The notes under the pieces were generated by a model. That model had not been told where the DNA came from. It saw only the letters and a list, made by a program, of their open reading frames with translations, and searched no databases. Shown in pieces: positions 11,564 through 51,486 of a stretch of DNA of 64,000 nucleotides; position 1 is the first letter of the stretch; the number at the start of each line of letters is the position of its first letter. Source of the DNA: Candidatus Bathyarchaeota archaeon (GTDB taxonomy: Archaea; Thermoproteota; Bathyarchaeia; Bathyarchaeales; DTEX01). Location of the stretch: the NCBI GenBank assembly GCA_963714275.1, contig CAVQNT010000003.1, forward strand, positions 128,001 through 192,000, in the 5' to 3' direction. The position numbers and the translations under genes are program-made.

Positions 11564-14500
11564 TCATGCTTGTTGGACACGGATGGTTCTTATTTCGAAC
11601 GGTCTGAGCGTAAGCCTTATTTTATTTGCTTGAGGCTCAAGGGTTTGTAGCTTTTTCTCCGTCAAGTCAACTTCTTCGGCTTCTCGAACATTGAATCCAA
11701 AGGTTAGTTCCGCCTCTACCCCAGAACCTGTGGCGTCGTAGATTCTGACGATGCAATTTTCTGAGTCTTCTGCTGAGCTTGACGCAGGACACGACCACAT
11801 TGTCAGGCTTAACTTGCAGAAAACTGGTTTCCTCAGACGCACACTCTTTCGATACCAATCGATCCACGATAACGAAGGCTTTAAGCGGATGATTAACCTC
11901 GTAGCCTTTCCTGAAGGTTAAGGCTTCCTTCCAGCTGTTTCTGTGCGGATAAACAGAATACTTTATTTCGTGAACCTTTAGGTCTGGTCTGGGGTCAGGA
12001 TTGTAACTGGTTCTGACAAGCGTCATTCTAACCGTGTTGCCTTTAACGTCGAACCCGTACTTAGAATCATTCAAAAGGCTGAACCCGTATTCCTCGTCTG
12101 AAACGTCGACCCACCTAAGCGCAGGAACCTCCGTGCCATCAGCTGGTCTTTCAATGTACCCGAACGGAACCTCAAACGATGCTTTAGAATATCCCAAGAT
12201 TGGAGTGAAAGAAACCTTCAACATGGGTGCCTCGGTTTTTTCGTCGGAAACTTCTTTCCAGTCTACGATTGTTTTAAAGTCTAATCTTGGAACGCCTTTA
12301 CATAAAGAAATGTACTGAACAATCTCGGACCCTCTGAACCTGTGGGTCACTTTAACCGTTGCCCTTACGGGTCCAGTCTCGATAGGCTCGGTTTTCGCGC
12401 CTCTTATGAGATTCTCCGAACGGCTGATTTCGCCTATGATCCAAGCCGACATATTGTGAGGAAGCTCGTACAAAACCTGCAGGAGATTACTGAAAACAGG
12501 TCTCGTGTATAGATACCTATTTTTTTGGACAACGAACCGTCCAGCAGACTTGTCGTAAAGCGATTTAACTGTGCCAGATTCCTTCTCGATTTCAACCCTG
12601 AAAAACTCGTTCTCAAGTACGTTATCGCTTTCAGTAAGATTTGTCGAACCTTCTACGCTGCCTTCTCCCTCAACGAGATAGAAGGTTTTGTAACCCATAG
12701 AAGGCACCTTAGCCAAAAAAAGAACTTCGTCGCCATTCACCTGCACAAAATTTTTTTCTCCACCCTCGGTTGAAACAGCAATTGGGTTCTGCGGAATCAA
12801 ATTTTTGGGAACTTTAGCTTGAACAACTTCAGCACGGTCCCACGACAAAGGGTTGAAAACAACTATCGGCACTCCCGATTTAGAAAATTTTATTTTCTCT
12901 ATAAAGACTTTTAAAAGATGCTATTAGAGTTTCATCTGCAATCTTTAAGGCTTCTTCAGCCAGCTCAAAAGGATATTCGTATGCTTCTGGGGTTCCACTT
13001 CCATCCAGTATATCGTGGAACTGGTTAAAGAGGGCATTCGACCAAGCCTTGCGAAGGGCGTCTCTGGGATAATTGCCTGAGAAAACAGCGAACTTTTCGG
13101 CGTCCACAAGCAGACTTTCACAAAGCCGATTGTAGCGTTTTATGTCGCCGTGCGTAGTGTAACATCCGTCAAGGGTGAACTGAAGCTCATCCCTGACCAC
13201 AGGAGCCTTTTTTACACCAGGGTCCTTTTCGAACTCTTCATAAAACCTGTGGGTTGAACTGAAGATGAGTCAGGGAAAACCTGTTTTTTCTGGAGCTCGA
13301 AAGCGGCTTCGAGGTCATCAACCGTTGCTCCTCCACCATGGTTGCCTACCCCGTAAACAAACATGCTTGTCTTCACCCCGTAATGCTTTACGAGGTAGAG
13401 AACCAGCTCCATAATGTTCCTCGGTGTCACAGTGTTGTTGTACAGGCTTGCGAAAACCAGAACTTTCGACCCGTCGGGTGATTCCCACCAGAAGACAGGT
13501 CCTTTGCTACATCTCGTTAGATAGTAGTATCTGCACCTCGACTTCCTCAAAAGTTGCGGCATAGTCGAGATGTGACCAAAAGTGTCAGGTTCCCAGCATA
13601 CTTTAGGCTCGAACCCGAACGCTTGCTTAATGTAGCGGTTGGCTTCTAGAAACTGCCTAACCAACGCTTCGTTTCCGCCCATGTTTAAGTCAGCTTCGAC
13701 CCACGTGGAAGCGGTGATGTCCCAGTTCCCCCTTTTCACGTGCCTTTTTATCGAGTCAAAGAGGTCTGGAAACTTTTCCTCAACAACCTTGTACGTGAAG
13801 GCTTGACTTTGCGAGAAGTGGAAATCGGGATACTTGTCTAACAATTTAACCATCGTGCCAAAAGTGTCTTTTATGATGTCCACGGTGTCGGTCCAAGGCC
13901 ACAACCAATTCATGTCAATGTGTGCGTGACCCACAAGAAAAACCCTGAACTCCTTAGCTTTTCTGGAAAGAACGGATAACTTGGCTCGTGCTATTTCAAT
14001 TTCGTCAATTAGCACCGAAGGATGCTTCTCTAAAACCTTCACGTTGAATTCTTTGGACACGTTATCGGTGATTTTCTTGTCCAGAACAGTTGCGAACCTG
14101 AGTTCCTGGATGAACGATTCAAGTTCAAACGCCACTTTTTCAACATTACTGTAAGTTATGCCAAAACTAGGTATTCCCACAGGCTCAAACCTAGGAAAGA
14201 CGTGAACTGCAACGACATATTCCTTTTGGGACTTAGTCTCCTCATCAAGAACTATTCTGGGTCCACGGAGCTCAGTCCAGTAATCAGCGCCCAAAACCTT
14301 CTCAGAATTCACAAAAATCTCTATTTTGTTCATTATGATGCCAGACGGCATCTTTACGGTTGAACCGGAGACATCTATGCCCAAAATCTCTTTGGGAACC
14401 AAAATTCTGGTCCTAAGCCAAGCCCCGCCTTTCCTTGCATCAACGGTCAGGGGGAGCTTAACTTGTTCCCAAGCAGAATCGTTAAAATCAGATTTATAGG

Positions 14501-14621
14501 CGTCTGGAGATTCTCCTTGATAGAACCTCCAAGAAAGGCTTTCGCGGTATCTTGTCAACTCTGTATGTTTTTCTAGAAGCTTTTGTAATAGAGGCGAGAA
14601 GTCATAGTTTTGGTTGTGCAT
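11564..14621 (-). CDS. GH38 alpha-mannosidase, split by three frameshifts (ORFs 13212-14621, 12880-13200, 11667-12872, 11564-11842)
   Basis: VGHAHIDMNWLW, WEPDTFGH, YGVGNHGGG, NQFHDILDGS, VVFNPLSW, LLNDSKYG and C-terminal LRPFEIRT in collinear fragments. Confidence 0.88.
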
Positions 14622-14828
14622 AAATGTGAAAAAGAGAAATGCATTTATATAATTTACTTTTGGCTCCAGACATGAGTGTTCGCTAAACCTGTTGGTGACA
14701 ATGAGGAGCCATTTTGTATATGATGAGAAAATTACCTAGTAGAAACCCCGCTTTGAAGTACTATGCTTAACACCAAGCGAAAAGTTTAGGGCATAGAAAA
14801 AGAGAAACGATGATCAGCTAATCCTCTT

Positions 14829-16854
14829 TTAGCACATTATGTCATAGAGAACGTGCCCTTCGCTTTGAGCGGGCGCAGGAAAGTCAAGCAAATAGGCTAA
14901 CGTTGGCGCCACATCCACAAGCCATATGGGTTCAGTCCGCAAGTAGCCCTTTTTTACGCCAGGACCAGATATTACGAATATCGCTTCATTCGAGCATCCT
15001 CCCAGTTTCGCAGTAGGCAAGAATCCCGAATGATTGCCTCGTCCAGGTCTTGAGGATATCATCATTTTTTTCTCTTCATCGGTGTATCGCATTTTTTCAG
15101 GCAAAGGAACAGGTCCTGGGTCTCCTGTGTATCCTGGTTTATAGAAATACAGCATGTCTGAAGCTCTTTCTCCCCAATGACCCAGCATTTTTGCGTCCTC
15201 CTTCCGTAAAGCAAGAGCGATGGGGCATCTTCCAGTCTCGGGGTCTTTTAGTCCATAAAGTAGGCTGAGGGTTTGGTCAATGACATCGTCATAGTCTTGT
15301 CCCGGATCAACAATTCCCTGGGGGTCTCGACCCTTCAAATTTACCCAAATATATTCCATTGGGAACCCAGGTCGGATGTAAGCCTTCGTTCTAGACCAAT
15401 CTATCTTTGAATACCCAGTTTCCTTGTCAGTCTTTATTGTCAATAATCTAGCTAACTGCAACACTCCGTTCACTGAAATGGATTTTCTTATTGGTACCGC
15501 AGCGTGGTCTGATATTACGATGGTTAGCATGTCTTCGCTCCAGCATTCCTTAACCATTTTTCCAACCTGCTCGTCCATGTGCTCGTACATCTTCCTGATG
15601 ATTCCCCAGTGAGCCTTCTCTATCTTGGGGTCATAGCCAGGAGCAGAAGGATTAATGCCATCAAAGCCAATCTGATGGCCTATTTCGTCCTGTAAATGAA
15701 GCAAAGAAAACAGTCCGTCCCAACTGTACTTTTTTTTCAGGTAACGGGCTACGTTGACAAAATAGTTCAGTTGATGCGACGTGCATTCAAAGTAAATGTC
15801 TAAGAGCTTAGGTTTCTCTACGCGAATCGGGTGCCTGTAACCCATGTACGTTTCAAAACCGCCAGCGTAAATGCCAACATTTTCTACGATTTCTTGGGCC
15901 AAATTCGGAGGATAGGTCCATCCGTCCGTCTTGTAGGGGATGGTTCGGAAAATTTCGATTTTGTCGCCTTTGGGCGATAGCTCGTTCAGTCTAAACTTGA
16001 ACCCTACCTTAAATCTTTGACTGTCGCTGACAACTTTGTCGTATGTCCAATCGCTCCACTCTTTCACTCTAAGATTGGCTATTGAGGTCGCAATGTTTTT
16101 TTCACGGCAAACGTAAACTTTGTCGTATCCTTCATTTTTAGAGTCAATTATCAATAAATGATAAGTTGGGTCCCAAATTGGGTCGCTCTTTTCTTCTTCA
16201 GTTTTCCCGTAATGTAACTGTTCCCATTCGCTTTGCCACACGTCTGATGCAAGTTTGCTGCTCGTAAAATTACTTGGAATCTTGGATTCTAAAGGTTGAG
16301 AAAACGATTTTGGAAGGTTTTCCCATCCCTCTGCTTTTTTCAACGAAATCTGGAATTCAAATATGTCCTGTGTTTCCTTTGAACTGGGAGATTCAGTGAT
16401 AAAATTCACGGGTACTCCTTTGTTCCACTTAGGCGCACAGCCTGAAGGTGATGGACCACCAACCAACATTCCATTTTTGAAAGTAGGTGGCCACGAGCAT
16501 AAGTAATTCATAACTAAACATTTCTTTCCCGCCTTTTCCGCTGCATCCCAAAGGAACTCGGCTTTACAGAGTCTTTGTTGAGTCTAAACCCACAGTTGAC
16601 CGCCCAACATCCAATGGGTCGCCTGGAAGATGAATCGTAAAACTTGTTATGCCATGGGTACCAGGCCAAGCACCCGTAACTATTGTAACCCAATTAGTGG
16701 GAGAGTCGACGGGAGGAGCTGGAAGCGCTCGGGAGTATGTCCCCTTTTTGATTAATCGTGCAATATTGGGCATGTGTCCTTCATGCAGAAATCGGTTAAA
16801 ATGCTCAGGCATTGCGCCATCAAACCCAAGAATCATGAACTTCTTGGCTTTCAT
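14829..16854 (-). CDS. Alkaline-phosphatase-superfamily (nucleotide pyrophosphatase/phosphodiesterase-like) protein, frameshift near 16570
   Basis: ILGFDGA, SPTNWVTIVTGAWPGTHGI, VISDHA, WVNLKGRDPQG, DVAPTLAYLL. Confidence 0.85.
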
Positions 16855-17118
16855 AACTCTGTAATAATAGGTTTCCAATATAAAAGTTACAATGAAGTAC
16901 ACGCAATAATAAAATTTAAACCCAAATTCGAGAATCCTTTTCTTAATTTGATGTGTATTAGAGGATTTCAATAAAATGTTCAACTATAAGAAAAATTGTA
17001 TGTTGTTCATTAAAAGAATGGTCGATTCAGTAAGTGTCGCATGAATTTTTCTTCTTTGAAATGAGAAATCGTATATCTTCTGTTGCTGTAATGGTAGGAC
17101 AATGGGTAATATAACTCG

Positions 17119-17233
17119 GTTATAATTATAACATATTTAAGCGACTATGATAGTCGTAAAATTAAAAAAATTATAACAGTGTATGGTAAGAGTTAAAATT
17201 CTGAAAAGAAGTTAAAATACCGTAAAGTTAAAA
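17119..17233. promoter_or_regulatory. Candidate operators in the divergent promoter upstream of module 1
   Basis: Perfect palindromes GTTATAATTATAAC (17119-17132) and CGACTAT-G-ATAGTCG (17142-17156); three AGTTAAAA copies (17191, 17210, 17226). Confidence 0.4.
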
Positions 17234-17257
17234 CATAGACAAATATACATAAAAAAT

Positions 17258-19330
17258 ATGGAAAGAAAAGAGGTAATCATGATGGCAAATGAAAAAAGTG
17301 AAACAAAACCAGTAACATTGAGAGCGATAATAGTTGCTGTACTCATGTTCGCTATCTTTCTACCAATCTCCGAAATTTTGCTCCTTTACAACAGGAACCC
17401 ATCAACATACTACGGTTTTCCATTAACATTCTTCTGGCTTACAATGATGTTCTACGCTTTAGGCAAAGTAAGTAACAAGCTTAGACTAAGCGTATCAGAA
17501 TATGCGTTTGTCTTTGTGGTCGTTAACATTCTAGCAGGCGCTAGAGGAATGAGTATGTGGGCTCAAACAGAGAACTTCCTTAGATTCTCAGACGAAGCTG
17601 CTTCTATTCTGATTACAGGACTATTCAATACACCCAGCCTATACAATTCTTTGGTTCCGGAAATACTCTTCCCCGCTGCTCAAAGAGCAGACGTAGTAAA
17701 CATGGTGATGTTGGGAATTAGTCCAGGACAAATCTTTCCTTGGGCAGCCTTAGCTGTACCTGTGGCAATGTACTCGATTTTCACATTCCTCATAATGTCT
17801 ATTTCTGCGTTCATATCCTTCGCTATACTGAGCCCAGTATGGACTGACATTGAAAAACTGCCCTTCCCTATCCATGCGCTTTCAGCCATAGAATTTGCTA
17901 GAGACGGCATAGAAAAAAGAAGAATCTTTAACCTAAAAGAAGGAGACAGAAAAGTCTTCTGGATATTCTTCCTGATTGGTGCTTTAGCATCTCTGACGCC
18001 AGTATTGCTTGAATTAGTTCCCACGTTGCCTCTACTGAACGCCTTTAACTTCGGAGAAACCCGTGTACCAATACTTTCGTCAATATCGTCTGTTCTACCT
18101 GGATGGATAGGATACGGATGGTGGGTTTTCCCACAGTTCTTCATAGGCCTAGTTGTCTCTAACGAAGCACTCATTTCCGCTATAGTAGCATATCTTGTTC
18201 ATTGCATCTACAACGTCATAGCCGTTCAAGCAGGATGGTACCAGTACTACGTACCTGGATCAGAGGTAACTGGCGGATACTGGGACTTACCTTCAGGACA
18301 ATCTCCATTCCCACTACGATACATGATCATGCCAGGCGGTTTCGTCGGTGTAGGCATCATACTCTTCTGGGCAGCCAGGCACAGAATCAAAAAAGTTGTC
18401 AACGCCTTACTTGGAAAAGAAAACGTTGTAGAAGCGGGTCTATCATTACGTTTCGTGAGTTACATCGGAGTCGCCAGCATTGTCCTATTTCTGGGACTGT
18501 TCGCTGTCGTCGGAGTTCCATTTATAATTGGTCTAATGTGGCTAGTGATGTGGATTTGCTTCTATACTGCTGCTGCAAGAGCTGCCGCTGTGTACGGTGG
18601 CGCAGGTGGAGCTTTGAATTATGGCGACTGGAAAGTGATGTATCCGGTAGGTTCAAGTCTGGGTTATTGGCCAGCCGACCCGCCCGGTAACCAAGCATAT
18701 TTTGTTACAAGAGCTGTTACATATGGATTCGCAGACACAATGGCCAGAGGCGGAGGAATGTACGACATGGTTGCGCTGACAGCGTTATGCCATATCGAAA
18801 AGTCCTTCAACGTTAATATGAAGCACGTTTACATCGCGGTTCTAGTGGTAGCTGGACTCGGAACACCTCTAATGTACCTTTCAGGTTATTGGTTCACAGT
18901 ACACACTGGCGGACTTTATTCAGTAAATTCCATGCCATACTACGACATGATGATGGACTACCAAGGCGTAATGGTCGCTTACTTCACTGCAGGCGGAAAC
19001 TTCTTCCTTGAATCAGCATGGTTCGTCACAGGAATCGGGATATCGGTGGGCATTTATGCATTAAAAATGTTTGTGCCCATACTTCCAATAGACCCTACTA
19101 TACTCACAATACTCTTGTGGAATCCTGAGTGGTTCTGGATGACGGCAATTGCTTCGCTGGTAGTAAAATTCGTCGCAATAAGAATCGTCGGACAAAAGAC
19201 CTTCATGGAATACGCAAAAGCAGTCGTTGTAGGATCGATGGCTGGATTCGGAGCGATATTCACACTGTTGGCTCTTTCCCAATTGGGATTAGTAGCAATA
19301 CCAAGATTCCTAAGCCTATACACTCCATAG
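17258..19330 (+). CDS. Polytopic membrane protein, OPT/DUF6785-like (module 1, subunit A)
   Basis: 690 aa with many TM helices; WTDIEKLPFP motif shared with three paralogues in the window. Confidence 0.7.
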   Translation: MERKEVIMMANEKSETKPVTLRAIIVAVLMFAIFLPISEILLLYNRNPSTYYGFPLTFFWLTMMFYALGKVSNKLRLSVSEYAFVFVVVNILAGARGMSMWAQTENFLRFSDEAASILITGLFNTPSLYNSLVPEILFPAAQRADVVNMVMLGISPGQIFPWAALAVPVAMYSIFTFLIMSISAFISFAILSPVWTDIEKLPFPIHALSAIEFARDGIEKRRIFNLKEGDRKVFWIFFLIGALASLTPVLLELVPTLPLLNAFNFGETRVPILSSISSVLPGWIGYGWWVFPQFFIGLVVSNEALISAIVAYLVHCIYNVIAVQAGWYQYYVPGSEVTGGYWDLPSGQSPFPLRYMIMPGGFVGVGIILFWAARHRIKKVVNALLGKENVVEAGLSLRFVSYIGVASIVLFLGLFAVVGVPFIIGLMWLVMWICFYTAAARAAAVYGGAGGALNYGDWKVMYPVGSSLGYWPADPPGNQAYFVTRAVTYGFADTMARGGGMYDMVALTALCHIEKSFNVNMKHVYIAVLVVAGLGTPLMYLSGYWFTVHTGGLYSVNSMPYYDMMMDYQGVMVAYFTAGGNFFLESAWFVTGIGISVGIYALKMFVPILPIDPTILTILLWNPEWFWMTAIASLVVKFVAIRIVGQKTFMEYAKAVVVGSMAGFGAIFTLLALSQLGLVAIPRFLSLYTP

Positions 19331-19481
19331 AGTATCCCTTTTATCTGTGGAGTGTAACCTTCTATTTTGTTTATTATCTATCATGATTATGAAAAAGTTT
19401 CTACGAAAATCGAGTGTGGAATGAAATTTGCGAGGTAAACTCCTTAACCCTCATGAAAGCAAATTTGCCACAAAAATCTTA

Positions 19482-22400
19482 ATGGTGATGCTGTTATTAT
19501 GCACGATTGGGGTGACGGTGCCTCTAAGCTTCGGTTCAACAAGTGCAGTCTCCAATTTCTCAAACAAATTCTAATTTGGATTTTTTTCTCGATGAAAACG
19601 TTTACAGTAACGTTCTAGACAGGATAACTTTTCTTTCAAACTTAGGCTCAAGAGTGACGGGGTATGAAGGAAACTATAGGGCTGCCCAATACATAATCGA
19701 CGAATTTTCTAAACTTGGGCTTAACGTGCAAGTCCAGAAATTCAATGTAACAGTGCCCATAGACCTAGGTTCAGACATAACAATCCTTACACCAATCACG
19801 GCAACCATAAATGCTTACGCTGTTTGGCCAAACGGCGTTCAACCTTCCCCTGCAAAAGATTTGGAAGGTCCATTGGTGTACGTGAAGGGTGATTCGTTAG
19901 GAAATTTCGACGGAAAAAATATAACGGATTCCATTGTTCTCATGGAGTTTAACTCCAGCTCCAATTGGCTTTACGGTGTAGATTTGGGTGCCAAAGCCGT
20001 AATATTCATTGAACCTTCCGATTCGTCAAGCAGCGAAAGTCTACAAAAATTCGTTGAAGCCCCCGTCTACTTCCCGAAGTTGTTTGTGAAACATGATGAT
20101 GGACAAAGGCTTAAAAATTTGGTTCAAAGTTCCCAATCCGAAGTTCGAGTAAAAATAAACCTCAGGATGGAATGGAGAACCGTTGAAACACAAAACATCA
20201 TAGCCATGCTTAAGGGTACGGGAAATCCTGGAGATGTCATAGTTCTTACGTCACATTATGACTCGTGGTCGGTTGTTCCCGCCATTTCCTACGGCGCTTC
20301 TGACGCCACGGGCGTTTCATGGCTTATAGAATTGGCTAGGTATTTTTCGGTTAATAAGCCTGTCAGATCCGTTTGGTTTGTAGCCTTCTCTGCTCATTGG
20401 CAGGCTATGGCTGGGGAAAGAGAGTTCGTCGATGAAATGTTCTTTAGCAGTCAGGTTCAAAGTGGAGCGGTCAAACCTTGGGTCTTCATAGGTTTAGGAC
20501 CTTTCTCCGGAGACTCTTTCAATATCCAGCTATTGGACACAAGCTTTTACGCAGGAGCCTGTTCATCTGAGCTGATTACCTCCGACCGATTTACATGGAT
20601 ACAAAGACGCATAACCCAATCTTACCTTCTAAACAACGAATTAAGACTGACAATTGAGGAGCTCACTGGGAGAAATCTTGACCCTACGCTTTTAGTTGAA
20701 GAAAGGCTGTCTACAACCTCTATGTGGTGGGGAACAATCCAACAGCCAATCATGCTTGAAAGCGAAATTCCCCTTACAGCTGGCTGTATATCCTTTAACA
20801 TTCTCAGTTCTCCTGTTTACACATACTCCAAGTACATAGGGTCGCCCGTTAACGACTTGGAACTCGTTAACCTAGAAAATATAAAACCTCAGTTTCTTGT
20901 TTCAGGCTTCATTGTTTCATCCATACTTAACGATAATGAATGGTCCCTTAGTTGGGCCAGCGTTAAACCTGTCAGAAGCGTGTACGTGGGAAGCAGCATA
21001 ATTGCTTCACAAAACGCGGGGTTCATCACGTTGAATGGTAAAGTCCTGTTTTTTAACAATAGTTTAGGTTGGTATGAACCTATTTCCCACGCACTAGTTC
21101 AAGTGCAAATGACGACCATGAATAATCCCTTAGCAAAGATAATTACGATGGCTGATGAAAATGGAAGCTTCCAAATTAGGGGCATAACACCCTACACTCT
21201 CACTTATAACAAGGGCGGATGGGAAACCAAAGCTTGGATTATCGATAAAGAAACCGGGAATATACTATATGCTCCAGACCTCGGAGTTCAAGGCGGCAGA
21301 GTTTTTACAAGCACAATCTTTCCTATGAGTCATCCTGCGCAAGTGTCTGCTGTGGTTGCAGAACTCCGAGCTATAACAGTTTTTAACCTGCTGGACCCAA
21401 GATACGACAGACCACTGATGGTTTTGGACCAAAGGTTTTCCTCGCTTGTCTCAAGCGACATATTTGTATCAGTCAGCGGGTTCATACGCCCCATCGAATT
21501 TTCGTCTAAAAGCGATTTTCTCACTTATGGCGCTTATTATAATCCTTGGGAAACTGTGGGAATAGTTTTTGTCCCGCCGTCCTCAAAAAGTGCTATTTTA
21601 TTGAAAATGGGAGGCACAGGAGCATCTTCGTTAAGCTGGCCCATGTTTCTTACTAATTCGACTGATGAAGAACCTGAAGGGGCAGGAGTTACAATGTCTA
21701 ACGACTCAATCACGATTCCCTTCTCAATTTACGCTTTTGCCTCTGACATGTTCAGAGCAACAAAATCCAGATACGAAAAGTTAACGGCATACAATGTGAG
21801 AAGCCTCAGCATAGAAAAAGCGCTTGATGAATCCCAAAAGAACTTAGCATTGGCTGAAAGCTTGTTTAACAGTAAAAACTACAGCGAAGCTTATAGTTAC
21901 GCTACTTTGTCCTATTCTTGGTCAACCCGAGCTTACAATGAAGTTATGGCTATAATTAACGAAGCAGGCACAAGCATAACGACACTTTTTATCCTTGCCA
22001 TAATAGTTTCCTTCGTAGTGGAGCGAATATTGGTTCAAGCCACGAAAGGTCTTGTAAGGTTACTTTTCATAGTAGGATTCACGGTACTCTCCATTATCAC
22101 GATGAGCCTCATACATCCAGCTTACACGGTCATGAGCAACGCGATCATAGCGAATATTGGTTCAGTTCTGATGATAATGTTCGTTATAAGTCTGGGAATA
22201 CTGGCCATTGAAGCGGAAAAAATGTCAAAAGCCCTTTCTGTACGGTATCTTGGTACGCACAGTATTGAGAAGGCTCGATTGGGCGTCGTAGCCCTAGCTT
22301 CCTCGATATCTGTTAACTTCATAAGAAAACATCGTCTCCGGGCTGTGCTAACGTTCCTAACAGTTTTCATAGTCAGTACAGCCATCACGTCAATTACTTC

Positions 22401-23989
22401 CATGGCACCATTCATAGGTGTCAAGATTTCGCCAAAGTCACTGGGAACATTGGATTTACTTTATCCGACGCAGTTGTTCTTAAAGAATGGTCAAGGTTTG
22501 CCTCAAAATGACATTTTCTCAGCACAAGTCGTTGAAGTCCTTAATCAGGTTTTGAAGGACAAATTCGTAATATTGCCTAGGGTCGTTTACTATCCTCAAA
22601 CAATATTCAGATACGGCGTTTATCAGGGAATATCGTCTCAAACTCAGACAAGTTACTTAAGGGCTATTCTGGGAGTGTCACCTGCAGAATCTGTCTTCCA
22701 GCAAAACTTGACATCTGGAAGATTCTTTTTAGAAGACGATTTTCAAACATGCATACTGTCCTCGGCGCAGGCTGAGGCGTTAAATGTAAAGGTAGACGAC
22801 AAGATTAGCACCGGCGAGCTACGAACTAGTTGTCGTAGGAATCTTTAATGAAAGTACCTTCAGACAATTAAAAGAACCGAACGGTATTCAGTTTGGAGTT
22901 CCAGACCCCTCCTATAATTCCTACATTGCTAAAGACATGGCTCAGCCTTTGAATCCTGGAGTTACTATTCCTCTACTTTCATGGGAATTTGTCTTGGTGG
23001 TTCCACAAAGATTTGCTCTTAGCCTCGGAGGGTTTGTCCAATCAATAGTCGCTGTACCCGTGTCGTCCGAGGTTTCAAGCAGTGAAATTCGAATAATCGC
23101 GAGTAATTTAGCTTTAACTCTGGATTTGAACATCTCGTTCGTTATTAACGGCTTAATTTCATCAGCTTCAAGATTACCTTCGTACGTTACTTTCGGGTTC
23201 GAGTCCCTAATGGTTCTTGTTGTCATCGCAGCTCTAAACATTGCTGTAACAATACTTTCGAGCATAAGAGAAAGAAACAGAGAGATTCAAGTTTTCGCAG
23301 TGACAGGATTGACGCCTCTGGGCTCCATGTCCATGTTTATTTTGGAATCGGAGATTTACGCCATCATCGGAGGGTTCCTAGGATACTTCGCCGGTTTTGG
23401 ACTTAATACTGCCTTCCGCAATTTTGGATTGTTGCCCTCGGAGATACCCTTCAATCACATTTCTTCAACCACAATGCTCACAATTGTCATAATTTTGGTG
23501 GTCAGCTTTGTCACGTCTTTGTGGCCATCTTTTTCAGCAGGCAAATCCGTTACACCTTCACTTCTTAGAAAATGGGAGTTCACCACCGAGCCAGGACAAG
23601 ATGATTGGGAAATACCAATACCTTCAAGAGCCTCATCCAAAGAGGAAGCGATAAGCATTCTTAGATTCCTGAAAGAATTTTTTGACGGTGCCGGCAACGT
23701 GGGACACATGTTCATGATTACTGAAACAAAGAACGTGATGGCAGAAGACGCCACGATAAGGTTTGTGATTAGGCAAGCTCCCTACGAACTGTTGATTCTT
23801 TCAGACGTGGAAATTCGATTCGTAGCGGACACTGAGGGATACTCAACACAAGTGTATCTGAAAAGAACATCGGGAGATAGAAAAGCGTGGATCGTCTCAA
23901 GCTACTATTTCGTGGACTCCCTGAGGAAGCAATTATTGCTTTGGAGAAGCCTTGCGGTTGCTGATCGTAGGAAGTTTTTGAATGACTAA
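19482..23989 (+). CDS. Giant membrane protein: signal peptide, PA/M28-peptidase-like ectodomain, TM block and FtsX/MacB-like permease domain (module 1); frameshifts near 19545 and 22830
   Basis: LGSRVTGYEG, TSHYDSWS, GASDATG; later SSIRERNREIQVFAVTGLTP (FtsX motif) and VTPSLLRKW; signal peptide MVMLLLCTIGVTVPLSFG lies in an adjacent frame from 19482; ORFs 19543-22848 and 22937-23989. Confidence 0.78.
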
Positions 23990-25878
23990 ATCTGTGCAGG
24001 AAAATGCATCGTCTCTTAAGCCTGGACTAACTTGGAGAAGCTTTATTGCAATGCTGACAGCAATCCTAATCTTTTTGCCAGCATCCATATATATGAACTT
24101 GACGTCAGGAGCCGGCACTTTAGGCGTAGCAGCATCCTTCGTTATCGCCATCATATTTAGCGAAATAACAAGGTACTTTGGGAACCCTCTTACAAAACAG
24201 GAACTTTTCATTATGTTTTCCGTGGTTTCAGCGGTATCCAGCCTTGTTACGCCCTATTATGGTCTTATTTGGAGAGTCTACTTTTCAACTCATCCCGTGT
24301 TCTCCCACGTAATGCTTTACGGCGAACCCCTGATTAACCTTATTCCTTCATGGTTTGTTCCTAAAGATGCCAGTGTCCTGCAGTTGCGAACCTTTTTTGT
24401 CGCGGAGTGGTTCCAACCAATCGCCATAGTTCTTACAATGGTTATCTTGTCTCTCATCCAATCGGTTTCTATAGCACTGTTCTGCTCTCATCTATTCATA
24501 GACGTTGAAAAGTTAGAGTTTCCATTCGCCAAGATTCAAAGCAGCCTCGTTCAGGTACTGTCTGAGAAGAAAGAGAACCAAATGAGAATCTTTATTTTTT
24601 CAGTAATGATTGGGCTTGTGTTCGGTTTGATTCTTTACGCTCCTCAACTTATCGGCACGCCCATAATTCCTCTTCCCTTCGTGGACCTTACGAGTTTTAC
24701 TCAAGACATCGTTCCGGGTGCCATAATTGGCTTGTCTACCGACATATTGACGTACGCAATGGGCATAGTAATTCCGCTTAATGTCGCTGCGTGCCTCGTC
24801 GTATCCTCCATCTTCGTGTACGTGATAGCGAATAACCTGTTTTTGGTTACTTTCCCGAACGTATTTCCACAATGGGTTCAAGAATACTACCCCGGAATGG
24901 GCATAGCCAGCCTCCAGTATAGGTCAACTCTACGAATATGGCTCCCGTTCCAGTTCGGAATGAGCATGGCTATGGCTATTTTCTACGTTCTCCTTTTGAG
25001 AAAGGAAGTTTTCAAATCCTTTAAGCTCCTAGGAAAAATCAAAAGCGGAACTGAGGATCATCCGTCAATTCCCATAGTTCTGATAATATTCATACTTTCT
25101 TCGTTGGCTTCGGCTGGTCTTTTCTTGTATTTTGTACCTGAATATCCAGCGTGGATAGCTGATTCTACTGTCAACGGGCTACAGCTTTCTGATGGCTTTA
25201 ATTTCATCAAGAGCTTTAGGTGTAGGAGGTATGAGCCCGTCTTTCCCGTACCCGTGGCGCATGATAACACTGTTCACGGATTATAAAGGGCTAGTAGGAT
25301 GGGACTTCCAACCTGCCATAGAAACAGGGGGATCAGCAGGCATAGTTCAGTCGATGAAAATAGCCTATCTGACTGAGACGAAACCTATGGATTACATAAA
25401 AATGTTCATCATAGGTAACATCGTGGCGCTTCTGTTAAGCGTAATATTCTACGATTTCTTCTGGAGAATGACGCCTATCCCGTCCACCGCCTATCCTTAC
25501 ACGTTAATGTATTGGCCTCAAAGCATGTTAGAGCTTCTAATGTACGCAACTAGGCAGATACAGATCCCTCCAGAAAGAATCGGCATAGGCATGGGAATCT
25601 CGATGCTATTATTAGCAGTCGAGTTTGGCTTAAACAGAATCAGCGTTCCATTCTCAGCCATCGGGTTACTTCTTGGAGCCTTCCAGATACCGCCAGCAGC
25701 CCTAGCCATATTCGTAGGCTCACTCATCAGTGACGTAATAATCGTCAGAATAATACCTGACTGGAAAGACCTTAAATTTATGGCGATGGCAGGTCTGATG
25801 GCTGGTGTAAGCATTAGTGCAGGCTTAGGAGTGTCCGTGTCCATTATTCTTAAATCGTCATGGATATGGTCATGGTAA
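23982..25878 (+). CDS. Polytopic membrane protein, OPT-like (module 1, subunit B); frameshift near 25170
   Basis: GLTWRS, LFIDVEKLEFP, FFWRMTPIPSTAYPY; ORFs 23982-25286 and 25192-25878; start overlaps the upstream stop. Confidence 0.72.
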
Positions 25879-25939: not shown

Positions 25940-26966
25940 ATGATGGTCTCTGAAGAATATGATAAAGAAATGAAAAGAGTACTTTTCGTTGTCATAGACC
26001 AGCTTGCTGGTCATTGGGCTAAAGGGGTCAGCGTCGCCAAAGACATGCCGCCAGTTAACGTTTGGGGCTACCACGAGAAAGGCTTGACTCCAAACTTTTC
26101 ATACATCATCAAAAACGGAATCTTTGCTTTCGCGTGGAACCGAGGAACCTGTGACACTCCGCATGGAATGAAGTATCTCGCGACGGGAAGCTGACAATGT
26201 GGAGCCTTTCTGGAAATCCCTGAAGAACCAGTCATATTATGCTAGGAAAGACTCAGACCCTATAGGTTTGTTCGAATATGCCAAACACTACAATCCTGAG
26301 GGCATTACGTCTGCTTGTTTCACAACCGATAATTGGGCGGCTCCGGGTTACTTTTTCACTGCTGCCGACACGCACGCTTTAACGTCTTATTTTCCTGATG
26401 AGACGATGTGGAGAGAGTTTGCGTTAACGTACTTGAGAAGAAAGAAGAATTGGAACCTTGCCCACGTTTATTTCCCGACCAACGACATTGTTTCTAACTG
26501 TCCGTCTTACGCGTTTTGGAATCCTCATGTTCGCTCATCAAAACATTCGTACATACAATATCTGGATAGCCTTCTAGGAGAAATCGTCGAGTTCCTAAAA
26601 TTCAACGAACTGTGGGACAAAACCTACTTAATATTGGCGTCTGACCACGGTTTTCACGCTGCTTGCTCAGCTGCAAGAAACGTCGGCAAAATGATAGGCA
26701 TTAATTCGCCTAACTGGTGTTGTGACCATCTTCCGCCGTATGACTGCGAAATCTGGGACTACGAAAATGACCATTCGAAAGGCGAATATTCTGGGTGTGC
26801 CAGAAGAGTTTTGTCCATCGTTTCAGGGGGAGCTCTCGAAAAATCCCTTCAAGGCAAAGTCATAAATGAATCAGAAATAATTGACGTCGCACCGACAATA
26901 GCGGACATCCTCAAAATTCCCTATAAATGCGAGGGAAAATCCCTATTTGAAAAATTAAAGCGTTGA
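25940..26966 (+). CDS. Alkaline-phosphatase-superfamily protein, split near 26195
   Basis: VLFVVIDQL, LILASDHG, IIDVAPTIADIL...EGKSL. Confidence 0.75.
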
Positions 26967-27064
26967 AGTATCTTAGAAAATTTTTATGTGCATTAATGGA
27001 TTTGCAATAAAACCTTAAGAAAGAAAGCTCGAAGTTGTAAATGTTCGTGAGGTTGGTCAGAAAG

Positions 27065-29743
27065 ATGTCGGATGTGCAGTCTATCGTCGTGTCGCACACT
27101 CACTGGGACCGCGAGTGGTACATGCCTTTTCAAGAGTACAGAATATGGCTTGTGGAATTCATGGACGACCTGTTAAGGGTGTTCGACCAGAAACCGGGCT
27201 ACAAATGTTTCACACTAGACGGTCAAACGTCTGTAATCAACGACTATCTGGAGGTGCGTCCAGAAAAAACTGAAAGATTAAAGAAACTGGTTGCTGAAGG
27301 AAAAATTTTTGTCGGTCCATGGTACACGCAGCCTGATGAGTGGCTTGTCAGTTCAGAGTCGCTTATTCGGAACTTGATGCTTGGTCACAGAGTTGGGCAA
27401 CAATTTGGCAACGTCTTGAAGGTTGGGTACGTCCCTGACAATTTCGGTCACCCTTCGCAGCTTCCCCAAATTTTCCGAGGGTTCGAAATTGACAACTTCG
27501 TTTTCATGAGAGGAATGGGAAACGAAGGGGATAAACTGAAAACCGAGTTTATCTGGCAGGCTCCGAACGGTTCAAAAGTCATCGCCATGCACCTGATCGA
27601 TTCTTACGTTAACGCGGCGTTGTTAGGCCTTCCGCCATCTATGCAGGACAGATTCGTCAGACTTTGGGAGGGACCAAGCGGGTCTCTGACGTATCCAAGA
27701 TCGTTCAGTGATATACTGGACAAATTCGATTGTGAGACTCTTGTTGACAAAGTCAAACGATTGGCAGAGGTGTTATCGCTTAAATCGGTTTCGGGTAAGC
27801 TGTTGTTCATGAATGGCTATGATCATGCACACGCGCAACCGGGAATAGTTGACGCCATAGAATTTGTCAATAAACAAGACATGGGCATCAAGCTAATCCA
27901 GGGAGGACTGGAGGACTACATAAACCCATTGCGTTCAATGATGGGGAAGATGCAGACTTATACAGGGGAGTTTTGGGGAGCCAAGTACCATTACCTTTTG
28001 CCGGGCGTGCTTTCTACTCGCATGTACCTTAAACAGCAGAATCGGCAGGCTGAGATTCTTTTAGAGAGCTACGCTGAACCTTTGTCGTGCTATGCGGTTC
28101 TCTTCGGGTATGAGTATCCAAGGAGTCTTCTTTCGTTGGCGTGGAAACTTCTGCTTCTGAATCAGGCTCACGACAGCATTCACGGCAGCAGCGTTGACGC
28201 GGTTCACGTGGAGATGGAGGCGCGGTACCAACAGGCAATCCAGATTGCTAACGCAGTTACGTATGACGCATTAAGGTACATAGCCAGCAAGGTTGAGAAT
28301 TTTTCGGACACTGATACCTTAAGGGTGGTCGTTTATAACCCGTCAAACTGGGCACGCAGCGACATAGTAAAGCTTTGGGTCGACCTTTCAACAGGCAACT
28401 ATGTAGCCATGGATAAAGAAGGAGACGCTGCGCCCATTCAATTCCTTAAAGAAGAAAACACGAGATTCCCAAAAGAGACCTTTTCACACATATCATTCTT
28501 CGCCAAGGATGTACCTCCTAATGGCTTCAGGGAATTTGCGGTTGTAGAAGCTGAAAAAACTGAACGGAAAAAAGCACAATCAGCTTTGAGAGCAGGTTCC
28601 CACTTGTTAGAGAATGAGTTCTTCCGAGTAGTTGCTGATGTTGATGAAGGCGGTTCTCTAACGGTAACTGATAAACGCAACAATGTCGCGTATAAAGGCT
28701 TTAACTTGTTCGTTGACGAGGGAGACCACGGCGACGTGTGGGATTATTCGCCTCCTAAAGGCGGAGACAAAGTTGTCACAAGCAAAAACAGACGTGCACA
28801 AATAGAGACTGTTGAGAAGGGACCTGTTTCCGCTACTTTAAAGGTTAGCCTAGTTTTGGATGTGCCTAAAAAGACTGAAGGAGATAGGCGCAGCAGCGAG
28901 ACGGCGGAAGTTCCCATAACGTCCTATGTTTCGTTACATTCAGGCGTTCCCAGAATAGACATAAAAACAGTTGTGGACAACACAGCCGAGGACCACAGGC
29001 TCAGGGTAAAGTTTCCAACTGGCATACGAACGTCTTCAGTGAACTCTGACGGACTGTTTGTCGTCAACGAAAGACCCGTGAAAAACGACGTAAAAGGCGA
29101 AAATTGGAAGCAACCCCCTCCGACGACGTTTCCGCAAATGTTCTGGCTTGAAGTTCACGACGACGAAAAAGGCATCACCGTAGCCAACAATGGACTGCCC
29201 GAATATGAATGCAGAGAAGAAGACGGAGTCAGCGTCTACATTACTTTGATGAGATGCGTGGGATCCCTAAGTAAAGAAGACCTATTAACCCGAAAAGGAC
29301 ACGCAGGACCGCCGCTTCAAGTGCCCGGAGCGCAGTGCCATCGACTGCACGCCTTTGAATACTCAATAATTCCACACATGGGAGATTGGGTTAAATCAAG
29401 GTCGTATCAGCAGGCAAAGAACTTCGTTAATCCGCTTGCTAGCTGGAGCGTTAAAGGCGAAGGTGGGACCATTCCGGTTGACGACGGGTTCGTTAAGATT
29501 GGGCCTGACAATCTGGTTGTCACCGCCATTAAACGGGCTGAAGATGACTGTTCCACCATACTCAGATTCTATGAAGTTGCGGGTAAACCATGTACTGCCC
29601 AAATCGAATTTAAAAAAGGTTTCCGCGAAGCGTGGTTAACTAACCTTAACGAGGAAGACAAGCGACGTGTGGAAATAAAAAACGGAAAAATCAAAATCCC
29701 CGTAGCAGCATTCGAAATAATTTCTTTGAAGCTTAAGACATAA
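27065..29743 (+). CDS. GH38 alpha-mannosidase (MngB-like), intact
   Basis: VSHTHWDREWY, LDGQT, GPWYTQPDE, YVPDNFGH, NQAHDSIHGSSVD, GLPEYE. Confidence 0.92.
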   Translation: MSDVQSIVVSHTHWDREWYMPFQEYRIWLVEFMDDLLRVFDQKPGYKCFTLDGQTSVINDYLEVRPEKTERLKKLVAEGKIFVGPWYTQPDEWLVSSESLIRNLMLGHRVGQQFGNVLKVGYVPDNFGHPSQLPQIFRGFEIDNFVFMRGMGNEGDKLKTEFIWQAPNGSKVIAMHLIDSYVNAALLGLPPSMQDRFVRLWEGPSGSLTYPRSFSDILDKFDCETLVDKVKRLAEVLSLKSVSGKLLFMNGYDHAHAQPGIVDAIEFVNKQDMGIKLIQGGLEDYINPLRSMMGKMQTYTGEFWGAKYHYLLPGVLSTRMYLKQQNRQAEILLESYAEPLSCYAVLFGYEYPRSLLSLAWKLLLLNQAHDSIHGSSVDAVHVEMEARYQQAIQIANAVTYDALRYIASKVENFSDTDTLRVVVYNPSNWARSDIVKLWVDLSTGNYVAMDKEGDAAPIQFLKEENTRFPKETFSHISFFAKDVPPNGFREFAVVEAEKTERKKAQSALRAGSHLLENEFFRVVADVDEGGSLTVTDKRNNVAYKGFNLFVDEGDHGDVWDYSPPKGGDKVVTSKNRRAQIETVEKGPVSATLKVSLVLDVPKKTEGDRRSSETAEVPITSYVSLHSGVPRIDIKTVVDNTAEDHRLRVKFPTGIRTSSVNSDGLFVVNERPVKNDVKGENWKQPPPTTFPQMFWLEVHDDEKGITVANNGLPEYECREEDGVSVYITLMRCVGSLSKEDLLTRKGHAGPPLQVPGAQCHRLHAFEYSIIPHMGDWVKSRSYQQAKNFVNPLASWSVKGEGGTIPVDDGFVKIGPDNLVVTAIKRAEDDCSTILRFYEVAGKPCTAQIEFKKGFREAWLTNLNEEDKRRVEIKNGKIKIPVAAFEIISLKLKT

Positions 29744-30548: not shown

Positions 30549-31821
30549 CTAGTTGGATCCACCCAAAGTATCTGGAATCCTAGATAAAATGGGGATTACG
30601 ACAAGCATCTCGATGAAGACGGGAAGGAGGATAACCAGTTCCATCATTCCCATTTGCCACAAGAAACCGCCCAACATGAATGCTGGAATCGTAATAAGTG
30701 TGTTAAATATACCAGTGAATCCGAACCATCTTCCCCTCTTCTCCGCTGGAACTAACTCCCAGTACATTGTCATGAAGGGAATATAGCTGAGAATGCCTAT
30801 GCCTTCCATTAGTCCCATTGCGCCCAGAACCCCTGCTATGATGAGAAAATTCGGTGCGGGCGCAAAAATTAAAATCAAGGTGCCCAAGTACGAGACAGGG
30901 CGTAGAACATAATATGCCTTTTTTCGCCCAATCTTGTCGGCTAGTCTTCCTATTGGCATCTGTAACAAAGTGGATATTCCCATGCTCAAGGTGCTCATGG
31001 TTCCGAGGATGTAAGGGTCTGCTCCTTTCACGTTCACCATCCAGAGGGGAACGTATGTTACGGATAGACTCGACGCAAAATACCACAGGCTCATTACAAT
31101 CGTCCATTTTTTTAGTCCTTTTTCGCCCTTGAATAATTCTTTAAAGCCTTCAATTAGGTTCATGCCCTTGGATTTTTTATTTACTACAGGCTGATCACGG
31201 GGGCTTTTCATCATGAAAGCCACAAACAGAATAATTATGAGGGTCAAAACCATCTGAATTGTGTACAATGGACGGATGCCTTGAGCCGATATTCCGCCAA
31301 ACGTGATTACAATCACGGATGCTATGATGGGTGTGAAAATGCTTGGTATGGTACCGATTGTCCGCGCGAAGCCTATCGATTGGGCTCTTTTTTCAGGCTT
31401 GATCGACTCAATCAGTACCATGTCAGGAAGAGAATAGACCATGTTGAAGCTGAATCTGGTAAATTATCATTGCTGGAATAAGCATCAACCAGCTGGAAGC
31501 ATTACCATAAATTCCTGAGACAAAAACGGATAAAATTAAACCCAAGATAATAGCCCGTTTTATGCCGTGCCTATCAATAAACCATCCCATGGGAGCCGAA
31601 ATTGCGCAATAGACCAGTTGGCCAATGCTGTATAATGACCCCATCTGAAGCGCATCTGCTCCTAAGGCTGCGACATAAAGCTGGACGTACTTGGATGGAA
31701 GGCCACCTGAAAAGTTGTAAAGCCCAATAGTAGCAAGCATGACTTTGGACCTTCTGTCAAAAGTTTTTATGAATCCGGAGACAGCTTCTTTTACGCCAAT
31801 TTTCATCCCGAAACCATCCAT
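30549..31821 (-). CDS. MFS transporter, frameshift near 31440
   Basis: MFS motif A twice (GWFIDRHGIKR, GRLADKIGRKK); about 12 TM helices across two ORFs. Confidence 0.85.
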
Positions 31822-41699: not shown

Positions 41700-41786
41700 T
41701 TTTCCTCTCCGGATAGTTCGGTGTATTATACGACCATCGTGATGTTAATAAGACTTTTGCATTGTTGTGTTATTTTTTATTTAAAT

Positions 41787-51453: not shown

Positions 51454-51486
51454 TAGAATTATGTAGGGAAGTTGAATAAAAAATTT

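Follow-up and report, generated by a model that had tools for sequence, protein, structure and literature searches.

The stretch of DNA analysed here, the window, comprises 64,000 nucleotides from a Candidatus Bathyarchaeota archaeon (assembly GCA_963714275.1, contig CAVQNT010000003.1, positions 128,001 to 192,000 of the forward strand). Five open reading frames (ORFs) on its + strand span positions 17258-25878 and form a membrane module, module 1, which encodes the polytopic protein P1, a very large protein B (in two ORF pieces) and a second polytopic protein, P2 (in two overlapping pieces). An earlier reading made from the sequence alone had taken the trio for an importer that works without an ATPase. 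The trio is conserved, and it is probably served by an ATP-binding cassette (ABC) ATPase and three helper proteins whose genes lie on other contigs. The genes of module 1 are:

17258-19330, + strand: P1 (also called A), 690 aa, intact ORF; polytopic, OPT/Yellow-Stripe fold, clade P1
19428-23989, + strand: B, about 1520 aa; TTG start at 19428; frameshifts near 19549 and 22816
23982-25878, + strand: P2 (also called C), about 632 aa; OPT-like, clade P2; frameshift near 25161/25162

The two B pieces lie at 19543-22848 (1101 aa) and 22937-23989 (350 aa), with the N-terminus in a separate frame that starts at the TTG, and the P2 pieces lie at 23982-25286 (434 aa) and 25192-25878 (228 aa). B is 94% identical to an intact homologue of 1519 aa, P0001, whose residues 1-1519 are all matched across three frames: residues 1-40 at 19428-19547, residues 41-1129 at 19549-22815 and residues 1092-1519 at 22685-23986. 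The length of about 1500 aa given to B in the sequence-only reading therefore holds once the frameshifts are read through, and does not hold for the gene as assembled, which is in three pieces. Other features named in that reading were found as described. The stop of B (23989) overlaps the start of P2 (23982) by 8 nt, the EKLxFP motif is common to both polytopic proteins (DIEKLPFP in P1, DVEKLEFP in P2), and Pfam matches place M28 and FtsX in the B pieces and OPT in the C-terminal piece of P2. A Pfam scan of 40 ORFs or ORF pieces of the window gave no match to a solute-binding-protein family, to a TonB-dependent barrel or to a SusD-like family. None of the 62 genomic matches to the ABC ATPase family PF00005 falls inside the window, the nearest being C3:92075-92542 (36 kb before it) and C3:197835-198260 (5.8 kb after it).

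We collected 295 related loci from a set of species-representative genomes, kept 80 of them and classed these by record title as 52 archaeal and 28 bacterial. B occurs in metagenome-assembled genomes labelled Bathyarchaeia, Thermofilaceae, Desulfurococcaceae, Brockarchaeota, Latescibacterota and Gemmatimonadota, and also in Armatimonadota/Fimbriimonadales. At least one P gene adjoins B in 50 of the 52 archaeal loci, the two exceptions being cut right at B, and at least two P genes are found in 39; P lies beside B in 18 of the 28 bacterial loci. As judged by the ORFs, the Pfam matches and this repeated arrangement, P1-B-P2 is a conserved cassette, which confirms the first observation.

P1 and the first P2 piece matched no Pfam family. 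The C-terminal piece of P2 matched OPT (PF03169; 7.7e-8, 31.9 bits against a cut-off of 25.8) over profile positions 448-615 only, and neither P1 nor P2 of module 1 reaches the cut-off for DUF6785 or DUF6784. An AlphaFold model of P1 (pLDDT 82, pTM 0.88) was compared with the PDB using Foldseek and matched barley Yellow Stripe 1 (7wsr_A; E 1.3e-6, probability 1.00, TM-score 0.57/0.64, 704 columns). This was the only match at E<=1e-3, the next having E 0.017 and a TM-score of 0.10, and it supports at the level of fold the earlier description of the flanking proteins as OPT-like.

A jackhmmer search on the ORFs of the related loci joins P1, P2 and their counterparts in a second module of the window (module 2, described below) into one superfamily. 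Within it, a FastTree of 109 P proteins, built from ORFs of 560-760 aa only (109 rows), separates two deep clades (support 100, branch 1.25). Clade P1 contains the window P1 and the divergently oriented gene of module 2 and lies mostly upstream of B in archaea, while members of clade P2 mostly follow B directly, in many cases with an overlap. The P1 consensus motif is E(K/R)LPFP, with E199 and P204 nearly invariant. Two deep paralogous clades, with two P genes at most archaeal loci, fit the heterodimeric carrier that had been proposed but do not show a heterodimer. The P downstream of B in some Latescibacterota/Gemmatimonadota-type loci (L072, L077, L080) is 900-1090 aa long, pointing to an extra domain.

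Hydropathy of P0001 together with the structural model gives B the following order: an N-terminal transmembrane (TM) anchor, a PA/M28-fold ectodomain, beta-sandwiches, a helical stalk, three TM helices, a MacB/FtsX unit and a tail. By hydropathy, TM1 (residues 17-35) precedes an ectodomain of about 810 residues and three TM helices at 850-924; then come a 48-residue cytoplasmic segment, TM5 (973-991), a MacB_PCD-like ectodomain, TM6, the segment IRERNREIQVFAVTGLTP, TM7 and TM8. The cytoplasmic tail of about 140 residues is conserved and ends RKQLLLWRSL. Pfam detects Peptidase_M28 in piece B1 (1.8e-10, 41.3 bits against a cut-off of 21.3, profile positions 1-77 of 193) and FtsX (PF02687) in 22937-23989 (3e-11, 43.8 bits against a cut-off of 25.5; 1.9e-10 in P0001). 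MacB_PCD (PF12704) scores 26.7 bits in P0001 against a cut-off of 27, is present in many homologues and goes undetected in the broken window pieces. NCBIfam scores of B are far under every cut-off, for LolC/E, MacB, FtsX and ADOP (Acidobacterial duplicated orphan permease) alike (LolC 25.4 against 473), and a first protein search found 92 relatives of B, nearly all of 1450-1580 aa.

The model of the ectodomain (861 residues; pLDDT 91.8, pTM 0.90) shows a PA plus M28 fold over its first 480 or so residues (Foldseek 2ek8, 1.4e-24; also PaAP, BSAP, GCPII and TfR1), followed by beta-sandwiches and long helical hairpins. With the whole 861-residue ectodomain as query, Foldseek returned no matched fold for the beta-sandwich region (about 480-720) or for the helical stalk. 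The B ectodomain profile also matches TfR1 (about 4e-11) and nicalin. M28 peptidases carry an "EE" pair made up of the catalytic Glu and a metal-ligand Glu; the AEE(N/L)GL of 2ek8/YwaD, which holds this pair, aligns to SGHWQAL in the B family and to SAHWQAM in the window. Because Glu-Glu is replaced by His-Trp in these profile alignments we read the B ectodomain as catalytically dead, and its PA/M28 domain is most likely a binding module rather than a peptidase.

Within the FtsX unit of B, IRERNREIQVFAVTGLTP is the TM2-TM3 segment and lies between TM6 and TM7 of the protein. E1281, R1282, G1293, L1294 and P1296 are invariant in an alignment of eight B sequences, and R1282, G1293, L1294 and P1296 remain so in one of 16 sequences that includes bacteria. 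Judged by its position and by comparison with YbbP (PMC12646458), the TM6-TM7 segment is the predicted ATPase-docking coupling helix. The first TM trio and the tail gave no match at E<=1, and the first cytoplasmic loop of the trio has only about 9 residues. B has one recognisable FtsX unit, which suggests that it needs a partner.

An ABC ATPase and helper genes associated with B

Nine of the 28 bacterial loci carry a gene for a LolD-type ATPase, N (243-257 aa), after B-P, 0.7-5.4 kb downstream and in the same orientation. Eight of these nine also carry a mini-FtsX protein, Z. Two further genes, X and Y, recur with them; of the 28 loci, nine have N, eight have Z, eight have Y and seven have X. 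In ORF maps of eight of the loci with N, B and P2 are followed by X (about 300 aa), then Y (about 140 aa), then Z (about 210 aa) and finally N, all oriented alike and either overlapping or separated by little space. An Armatimonadota-type locus, L041, has P at 14460-16526, X at 16568-17545, Y at 17547-17963, Z at 17960-18589 and N at 18658-19398.

Pfam identifies the operon proteins as PqqD for Y (8.8e-12; range 1e-9 to 1e-12), FtsX for Z (6.5e-18) and ABC_tran for N (4.1e-33). Z is a 4-TM FtsX protein without an ectodomain. X, which matched no Pfam family, is predicted to be cytoplasmic and rich in Cys and His, is about 300-335 aa long and shows conservation of GW(Q/N)G, CxxC, His, Cys and C-terminal CH residues. 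Its matches in the protein atlas are "hypothetical protein" clusters only, from Armatimonadota, Bathyarchaeota and Thermoproteota, and the family has 1373 cluster representatives at E<=1e-10 in a 50%-identity library. No fused form of X was found in a search at 666-2000 aa, and the best 150 relatives in an exhaustive profile search are 226-406 aa long. A complex prediction of the B tail (P0001 1366-1519) with X scored 0.00 in a run without controls and is evidence neither for nor against contact.

Orthologues of all four genes are present in the genome of the window, on contigs C4 and C7:

C4:52334-53053, - strand: N orthologue; 67-71% identity to in-operon bacterial N (tblastn)
C4:51580-52215, + strand: Z orthologue; 43-52% identity; tail to tail with N; one frameshift
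C7:67347-68354, + strand: X orthologue; single copy (tblastn)
C7:69312-69857, - strand: Y orthologue; single copy (tblastn); PqqD-like

Other ATPases on contig C4 listed in the same search are 26-34% identical to bacterial N. The N of this genome keeps Walker A, LSGGQ, Walker B and the H-loop. The label "ATPase-less" is therefore not supported. The sequence-only reading was to be refuted by a dedicated ATPase linked consistently to the module in other genomes, and this is partly the case, as a LolD-type ATPase is linked to B in bacterial genomes and an orthologous Z-N pair is present on C4. Four archaeal loci hold some other ABC ATPase, two of them 47-50% identical to N and two unrelated.

Co-occurrence was scored in 151 genomes of Bathyarchaeia, the class of the window, with B counted at E<=1e-30. 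B, X and Y were found in exactly the same six genomes, all from one family. Five of the six have a strong P1 match, and three of the 145 others a weak one (1e-11 to 1e-16). N orthologues of 90-96% identity are present in all five B-bearing relatives. The sole B-less member of the family, G020 (100% complete), has no X, Y or P1 at the thresholds used, no N at E<=1e-60, and for Z only a match at 3.6e-9. For 101 Armatimonadota, comparison of two tables gave B in 80 and X in 79, with both in 79, B only in 1, X only in 0 and neither in 21; in at least 42 of the 79, the distance from X to a listed B match is about 7 kb or less.

Five further archaeal and five further bacterial B-bearing genomes all have X in single copy and unlinked from B. 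It clusters with Y and/or Z in four of the five bacterial genomes and with Y in a Brockarchaeota genome. The present genome has two B genes and one X, and G014 and G050 have three B and one X each, whereas B is single copy in the five bacterial genomes checked. N is 90-96% identical across the family and the B paralogues are 26-37% identical to P0001. Beside N or Z in G044, G014 and G050 lies a gene of 615-633 aa (L096:10089-11936, L097:6114-8015, L098:5571-7442), of which the G044 copy matches AFOR_N/AFOR_C (aldehyde:ferredoxin oxidoreductase).

All four of the B-less Bathyarchaeia loci that we inspected have Z-N next to a B-like permease of 860-955 aa, which matches the B profile over positions 750-1405 at 1e-41 to 1e-46. 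Three of these short permeases were scanned with Pfam; all have FtsX, two have MacB_PCD and two have a CarboxypepD_reg-like N-terminus (below cut-off). Their positions are:

C1:20497-23169, - strand: short B-like permease, copy of this genome
L093:5433-8297, L094:1-2586, L095:4251-7103, L099:3694-6561: short B-like permeases of related loci

Since Z-N adjoins a permease that resembles B, these loci support the idea of B-type FtsX units working together with Z and N. Z-N would then be an engine for B-type permeases more widely, with X and Y confined to the long form that has P proteins. The short permease with Z-N looks like an uncharacterised archaeal type VII ABC system of its own. The 67-71% identity of N had been considered as a mark of B specificity and was dropped, because N of B-less Bathyarchaeia is equally close.

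Module 2 and the enzymes around the cassettes

The genes next to module 1 are enzymes, as the sequence-only reading had said, and Pfam matches place GH38 (a glycoside hydrolase, GH, family) and phosphodiesterase-like proteins on both sides:

11667-14621, - strand: GH38 alpha-mannosidase; split into 11667-12872 and 13212-14621; GH38C 2.3e-44, GH38N 2e-54; no signal peptide
14829-16983, - strand: type I phosphodiesterase of the AlkP superfamily; split into 14829-16511 and 16564-16983; Phosphodiest 3.4e-16
about 25940-26966, + strand: phosphodiesterase/sulfatase-like protein; split; Phosphodiest 9.2e-8, Sulfatase 5.9e-6; no signal peptide
27041-29743, + strand: second GH38 alpha-mannosidase; 900 aa, intact; four GH38 domains; no signal peptide

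The order around module 1 is hence GH38(-), phosphodiesterase(-), P1-B-P2(+), phosphodiesterase(+), GH38(+). The enzyme at 25940-26966 has its N-terminal part in another frame, where the upstream frame reads MKRVLFVVIDQ. Genome-wide there are two GH38N matches and three Phosphodiest matches (two of them in 14829-16983), none of them more than 5 kb away from module 1. No signal peptide was seen at the N-termini of these enzymes, so their substrates would have to enter the cell. Just upstream of this block lie an FG-GAP repeat protein with a dockerin-like segment (9320-10423) and an ADP-ribosylglycohydrolase (7882-9219), which may belong to the same catabolic locus.

A second, diverged copy of the module occupies 35061-43807. 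It is broken too, and is 26-38% identical to module 1:

35061-37017, - strand: P2-type gene; two pieces, 36130-37017 and 35061-36245; DUF6784 3.6e-4; 26-27% identity to module 1 P2
37180-41699, - strand: B paralogue; pieces 39639-41699 (M28 3.2e-17), 38297-39718 and 37180-38337 (FtsX 7.2e-18)
41897-43807, + strand: P1-type gene; 636 aa, divergent from the B paralogue; clade P1

The B paralogue shows 38% and 28-30% identity to the B of module 1. The P1-type protein matches DUF6785 at 1.6e-17 (63.7 bits against 25) and DUF6784 at 6.2e-9 (36.4 bits against 26.4).

We then tallied the neighbours of the related cassettes, taking from either side of the core at most three greedily chosen ORFs of 120 aa or longer and removing duplicates of more than 60% identity (23 of the 202 in archaea and 13 of the 137 in bacteria), which left 179 and 124. 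The archaeal set has five Phosphodiest, four Sulfatase and two each of GH38, GH31, GHL10 and GHL6, together with one each of GH106, GH10, GH2 and GH66. It also has five GFO_IDH_MocA proteins, five AP_endonuc_2 proteins (xylose-isomerase-like TIM barrels) and two TrmB regulators. The sequence-only reading had expected carbohydrate-active enzymes (CAZymes) near homologues of the module; this holds in archaea, where glycoside hydrolases, sulfatases and phosphodiesterases adjoin the cassettes, and does not in bacteria, where there was no enrichment.

The most frequent neighbour of the archaeal cassettes is URO-D (PF01208; 10 of 179), for which we have no explanation. B12-binding and radical-SAM matches occur in three of the 179, and a protein of this kind is encoded at 33239-34672, between modules 1 and 2. 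Elsewhere in the window, positions 50000-57000 have a low GC content (0.30-0.35 against about 0.44 elsewhere) and adjoin a Cdc6/Orc1 gene (55694-56953), so this may be a replication origin region. Two convergent genes for D-Ala-D-Ala-ligase-like ATP-grasp proteins, at 677-1732 (+) and 1746-2777 (-), were seen in this archaeon, and a split MFS gene lies at 30549-31821.

A proposed mechanism and its alternatives

Domain anatomy, conservation of the cassette, operon linkage in bacteria and co-occurrence are observed. We put at about one chance in two the reading that P1-B-P2 is a substrate-specific cassette which works with a shared type VII ABC engine supplied in trans and is used for glycan import. 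Module 1 would be one of two paralogous cassettes in a membrane system with six components (B, P, X, Y, Z and N), in which B acts as a surface receptor fused to a transducer and captures substrate outside the cell with its dead PA/M28 ectodomain. P1 and P2 probably form the translocation path, to which the ectodomain would hand the substrate over for uptake. Z may supply the second FtsX half that B is without, B pairing with Z as LolC does with LolE and two N subunits docking on the pair of coupling helices. The ATP hydrolysed by N would then drive mechanotransmission through Z and B, moving the ectodomain and loading P1/P2, while X and Y would act on the cytoplasmic side, perhaps on the conserved tail of B. 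The substrate of module 1 is likely a glycan or glycoconjugate containing mannose and phosphodiesters, which the flanking GH38 enzymes and phosphodiesterases would cleave in the cytoplasm. It is a more tentative, and on balance doubtful, proposal that the system is a new class of ATP-driven importer, with a Z-N-X-Y engine common to interchangeable cassettes of receptor-FtsX and P1/P2 (an OPT-fold channel) in glycan-degradation loci.

Several points weigh against import of glycans by a shared engine. Type VII ABC systems are known as extractors, exporters and mechanotransducers and not as importers, and OPT carriers are proton-driven. Inferred, and not observed, are the energising of B by N and Z, the transport direction, the nature of the substrate and physical contact of any kind. 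All 52 archaeal B loci are free of an N orthologue, X, Y or small Z within flanks of up to 10 kb, and for linkage in archaea there is co-occurrence, besides one relative, G044, whose N gene is 2.2 kb away from a P1-P2-B cassette. The archaeal co-occurrence is that of a single family and could reflect one gain or loss, and since kin are dependent the two samples amount to two lineage-level observations, not 252. Pairs of Z and N (N 64-72% identical) are found in many Bathyarchaeia without B, X or Y, so that Z-N here could serve the short B-like permease at C1:20497-23169 alone. Ten of the 28 bacterial loci have no P beside B, several of them with short flanks. The top-25 list of the 124 bacterial neighbours has no glycoside-hydrolase family except one NamZ muramidase, and instead includes housekeeping and envelope genes (LptF/G 2, MlaD 2, Lgt 1, MreB 1, aminotransferases); the archaeal tally is contrasted only with this bacterial one and not with a genomic background. 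Given a bacterial context without CAZymes and the presence of B in 80 of 101 Armatimonadota, the ancestral role may have been other than glycan uptake.

The same bacterial context lends itself to a different reading, in which the system is an envelope machine and not an importer. Mechanotransmission through B-Z-N, as in LolCDE, FtsEX and YbbAP, would extract, present or remodel a surface glycoconjugate, for example a lipid-linked or S-layer glycan, with the P proteins as flippase-like partners and the neighbouring hydrolases recycling the products. This would suit a B that is widespread in Armatimonadota, single copy in the bacterial genomes checked and found among LptF/G, MlaD, Lgt and MreB genes, as well as an ectodomain that is a dead enzyme on a long helical stalk. 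Characterised type VII systems likewise extract or actuate and do not import (PMC12646458). The archaeal cassettes, however, are multi-copy and divergent (27-38% identity between paralogues), and their loci are catabolic, with cytoplasmic hydrolases and not glycosyltransferases, which is typical of substrate-specific uptake. We therefore consider an envelope machine unlikely, both as regards B-Z-N and as regards the roles it gives to the P proteins and hydrolases.

Peptides are another conceivable cargo. Oligopeptides and metal chelates are the classical cargo of OPT carriers, and in pathways for ribosomally synthesised and post-translationally modified peptides (RiPPs) it is PqqD-like domains that recognise the peptide. 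The system could then take up or export oligopeptides or ribosomal peptides, with the PA/M28 domain binding peptide termini, the OPT-fold proteins carrying the peptide and the PqqD-like Y binding it in the cytoplasm. The matches of Y to PqqD at 1e-9 to 1e-12, the resemblance of the ectodomain to the aminopeptidases 2ek8, PaAP and BSAP, and bacterial loci without CAZymes would all fit. But the Glu-Glu of the peptidases aligns to His-Trp in the profile of the B family, and the neighbours of module 1 are mannosidases and phosphodiesterases. No peptidase family appears in either top-25 list of the 179 archaeal neighbours, nor is there a recognisable RiPP-maturation set in the top-25 neighbour lists, B12-binding/radical-SAM matches being confined to three of the 179. 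A peptide system thus appears quite unlikely.

The model of the sequence-only reading was an importer independent of any ATPase, with B as a receptor or scaffold that has lost its ABC partner and P1/P2 as a proton-driven heterodimeric oligosaccharide carrier. Consistent with this are a window without an ATPase, flanks without an N orthologue at all 52 archaeal loci, the secondary-carrier fold of P with its two clades and usually two genes per archaeal locus, and a CAZyme context that holds in archaea; the "orphan" duplicated FtsX permeases of the ADOP group provide a precedent for permeases unlinked from an ATPase. Against it, the coupling segment is among the most conserved parts of the FtsX unit of B, Z and N lie inside bacterial operons, and Z-N adjoins the short B-like permease in archaea. 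B, X and Y moreover co-occur in both samples, the Bathyarchaeia and the Armatimonadota, with N at 90-96% identity in five B-bearing relatives. Independence from an ATPase is accordingly improbable.

Finally, the frameshifts could be real and both modules decaying pseudogenes. Module 1 has three frameshifts and module 2 at least three. Those of module 1 are one-base insertions at 19549, 22816 and 25161/25162. We aligned Logan contigs from four wetland or sediment metagenome runs to 19300-25400, and the only indels listed were one base absent at each of these three sites: at 19549 in run X4, and at 22816 and 25161/25162 in runs X1 and X4. The X1 pieces across 22816 and 25161 have 12 letter differences in 840 and 4 in 607, and X4 is more distant. 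Contigs of the closest run, X2, end just before each site, leaving it uninformative on the closest population. Split genes are frequent genome-wide in this assembly of 10 contigs and 2.64 Mb: GH38, both phosphodiesterases, the MFS gene, module 2 and Z are split, and several ABC ATPase matches are cut or contain stops, a frequency that fits uncorrected indels of a long-read assembly. Because contigs from other runs are without exactly one base per site and splits are common throughout the genome, the frameshifts are probably assembly errors and the genes intact in nature. Decay is a highly improbable explanation, as the pieces also have no further decay and are 94% identical to intact P0001. 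Annotations of assembly GCA_963714275.1 will over-call pseudogenes.

Comparison with known systems

We return to the reading of P1-B-P2 as a cassette served by a shared ABC engine. Three of its parts come from known families, namely the FtsX/MacB permease, the LolD-type ATPase and the OPT-fold carrier. For their combination with X and Y we found no published account, supplementary gene tables aside. Literature searches likewise found no pairing of OPT-type and type VII permease genes, no publication on DUF6785/DUF6784 and none on Bathyarchaeia with GH38 and a transporter; searching for FtsX, M28, archaea and permease together returned only unrelated work. The six-part system is widespread.

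The analogy with SusCD drawn in the sequence-only reading holds for the logic of the locus, as in both cases a surface-exposed binding module and a membrane transporter lie inside glycan-degradation loci. It does not extend to the proteins; the module has no TonB-dependent barrel or SusD-like protein, and the archaeon has no outer membrane. On the more tentative proposal of a new importer class, the system would be an archaeal counterpart of polysaccharide-utilisation loci. If the reading of an engine with several cassettes is right, it would give an account, open to test, of complex glycan uptake by these archaea.

The ectodomain of B resembles TfR1, nicalin, GCPII/PSMA and the PA-M28 aminopeptidases in its PA plus M28 fold (Foldseek about 1e-18 to 1e-19 for GCPII and TfR1), and TfR1 and nicalin are also without catalytic residues. 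Unlike in these proteins, the M28-fold domain of B is followed by beta-sandwiches and a helical stalk and is fused to a polytopic ABC-type permease. P1 resembles the OPT/YSL family in fold, given its match to barley YS1 (7wsr); in sequence, the C-terminal piece of P2 lies above the PF03169 cut-off, and the P1-type protein of module 2 passes the cut-offs for both DUF6785 and DUF6784. Sequence identity of P1 to barley YS1 is 13%, however, and P1 and P2 differ from OPT/YSL proteins in forming two paralogous clades, with their genes on either side of one for a type VII permease.

ADOP proteins (TIGR03434) are large FtsX-type permeases that occur as numerous paralogues in one genome, away from genes for ABC ATPases; each comprises two MacB_PCD+FtsX units, and M28 or OPT partners are not known for them. 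Piece B2 gives a weak match to them (3.4e-6), but B scores 25.5 bits against a cut-off of 622.3 and is not a member. It would seem advisable to check "orphan" FtsX permeases for a remote ATPase before calling them ATPase-independent. Group II energy-coupling factor (ECF) transporters combine one EcfAA'T module with many scattered S components, and sugar ABC importers share one ATPase of the MsmK/MalK type. Several divergent cassettes per genome with a single-copy energising set elsewhere would follow the same plan, if the set is indeed shared here, although neither system has homology to B-P-X-Y-Z-N.

The closest likeness is to the type VII ABC systems MacB, LolCDE, FtsEX and YbbAP-TesA. The C-terminal unit of B matches FtsX, its profile matches MacB, LolC/E, YtrF and LolF chains, it keeps the TM2-TM3 coupling segment, and N is a LolD/MacB-type ATPase with all motifs. 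B differs from them in having one recognisable FtsX unit plus four extra TM helices, in the separate ectodomain-less mini-FtsX Z encoded with the ATPase N, and in a hydrolase-fold module that is fused and, by its sequence, catalytically dead. Archaeal B genes are, in addition, multi-copy and unlinked from the ATPase, and the OPT-fold partners, X and Y have no counterpart in characterised systems. YbbAP-TesA has a single-chain pseudo-dimeric permease, YbbP, with two ATPases and a hydrolase partner; both it and FtsEX-EnvC pair a permease with a hydrolase-fold extracytoplasmic module, as the B system does, and YbbAP-TesA is the closest characterised architecture (PMC12646458). If our reading is true, B and its partners would extend type VII mechanotransmission to a new task; on the more tentative proposal of a new importer class, they would be the first importing type VII ABC system and would include the first OPT-fold protein under an ABC motor.

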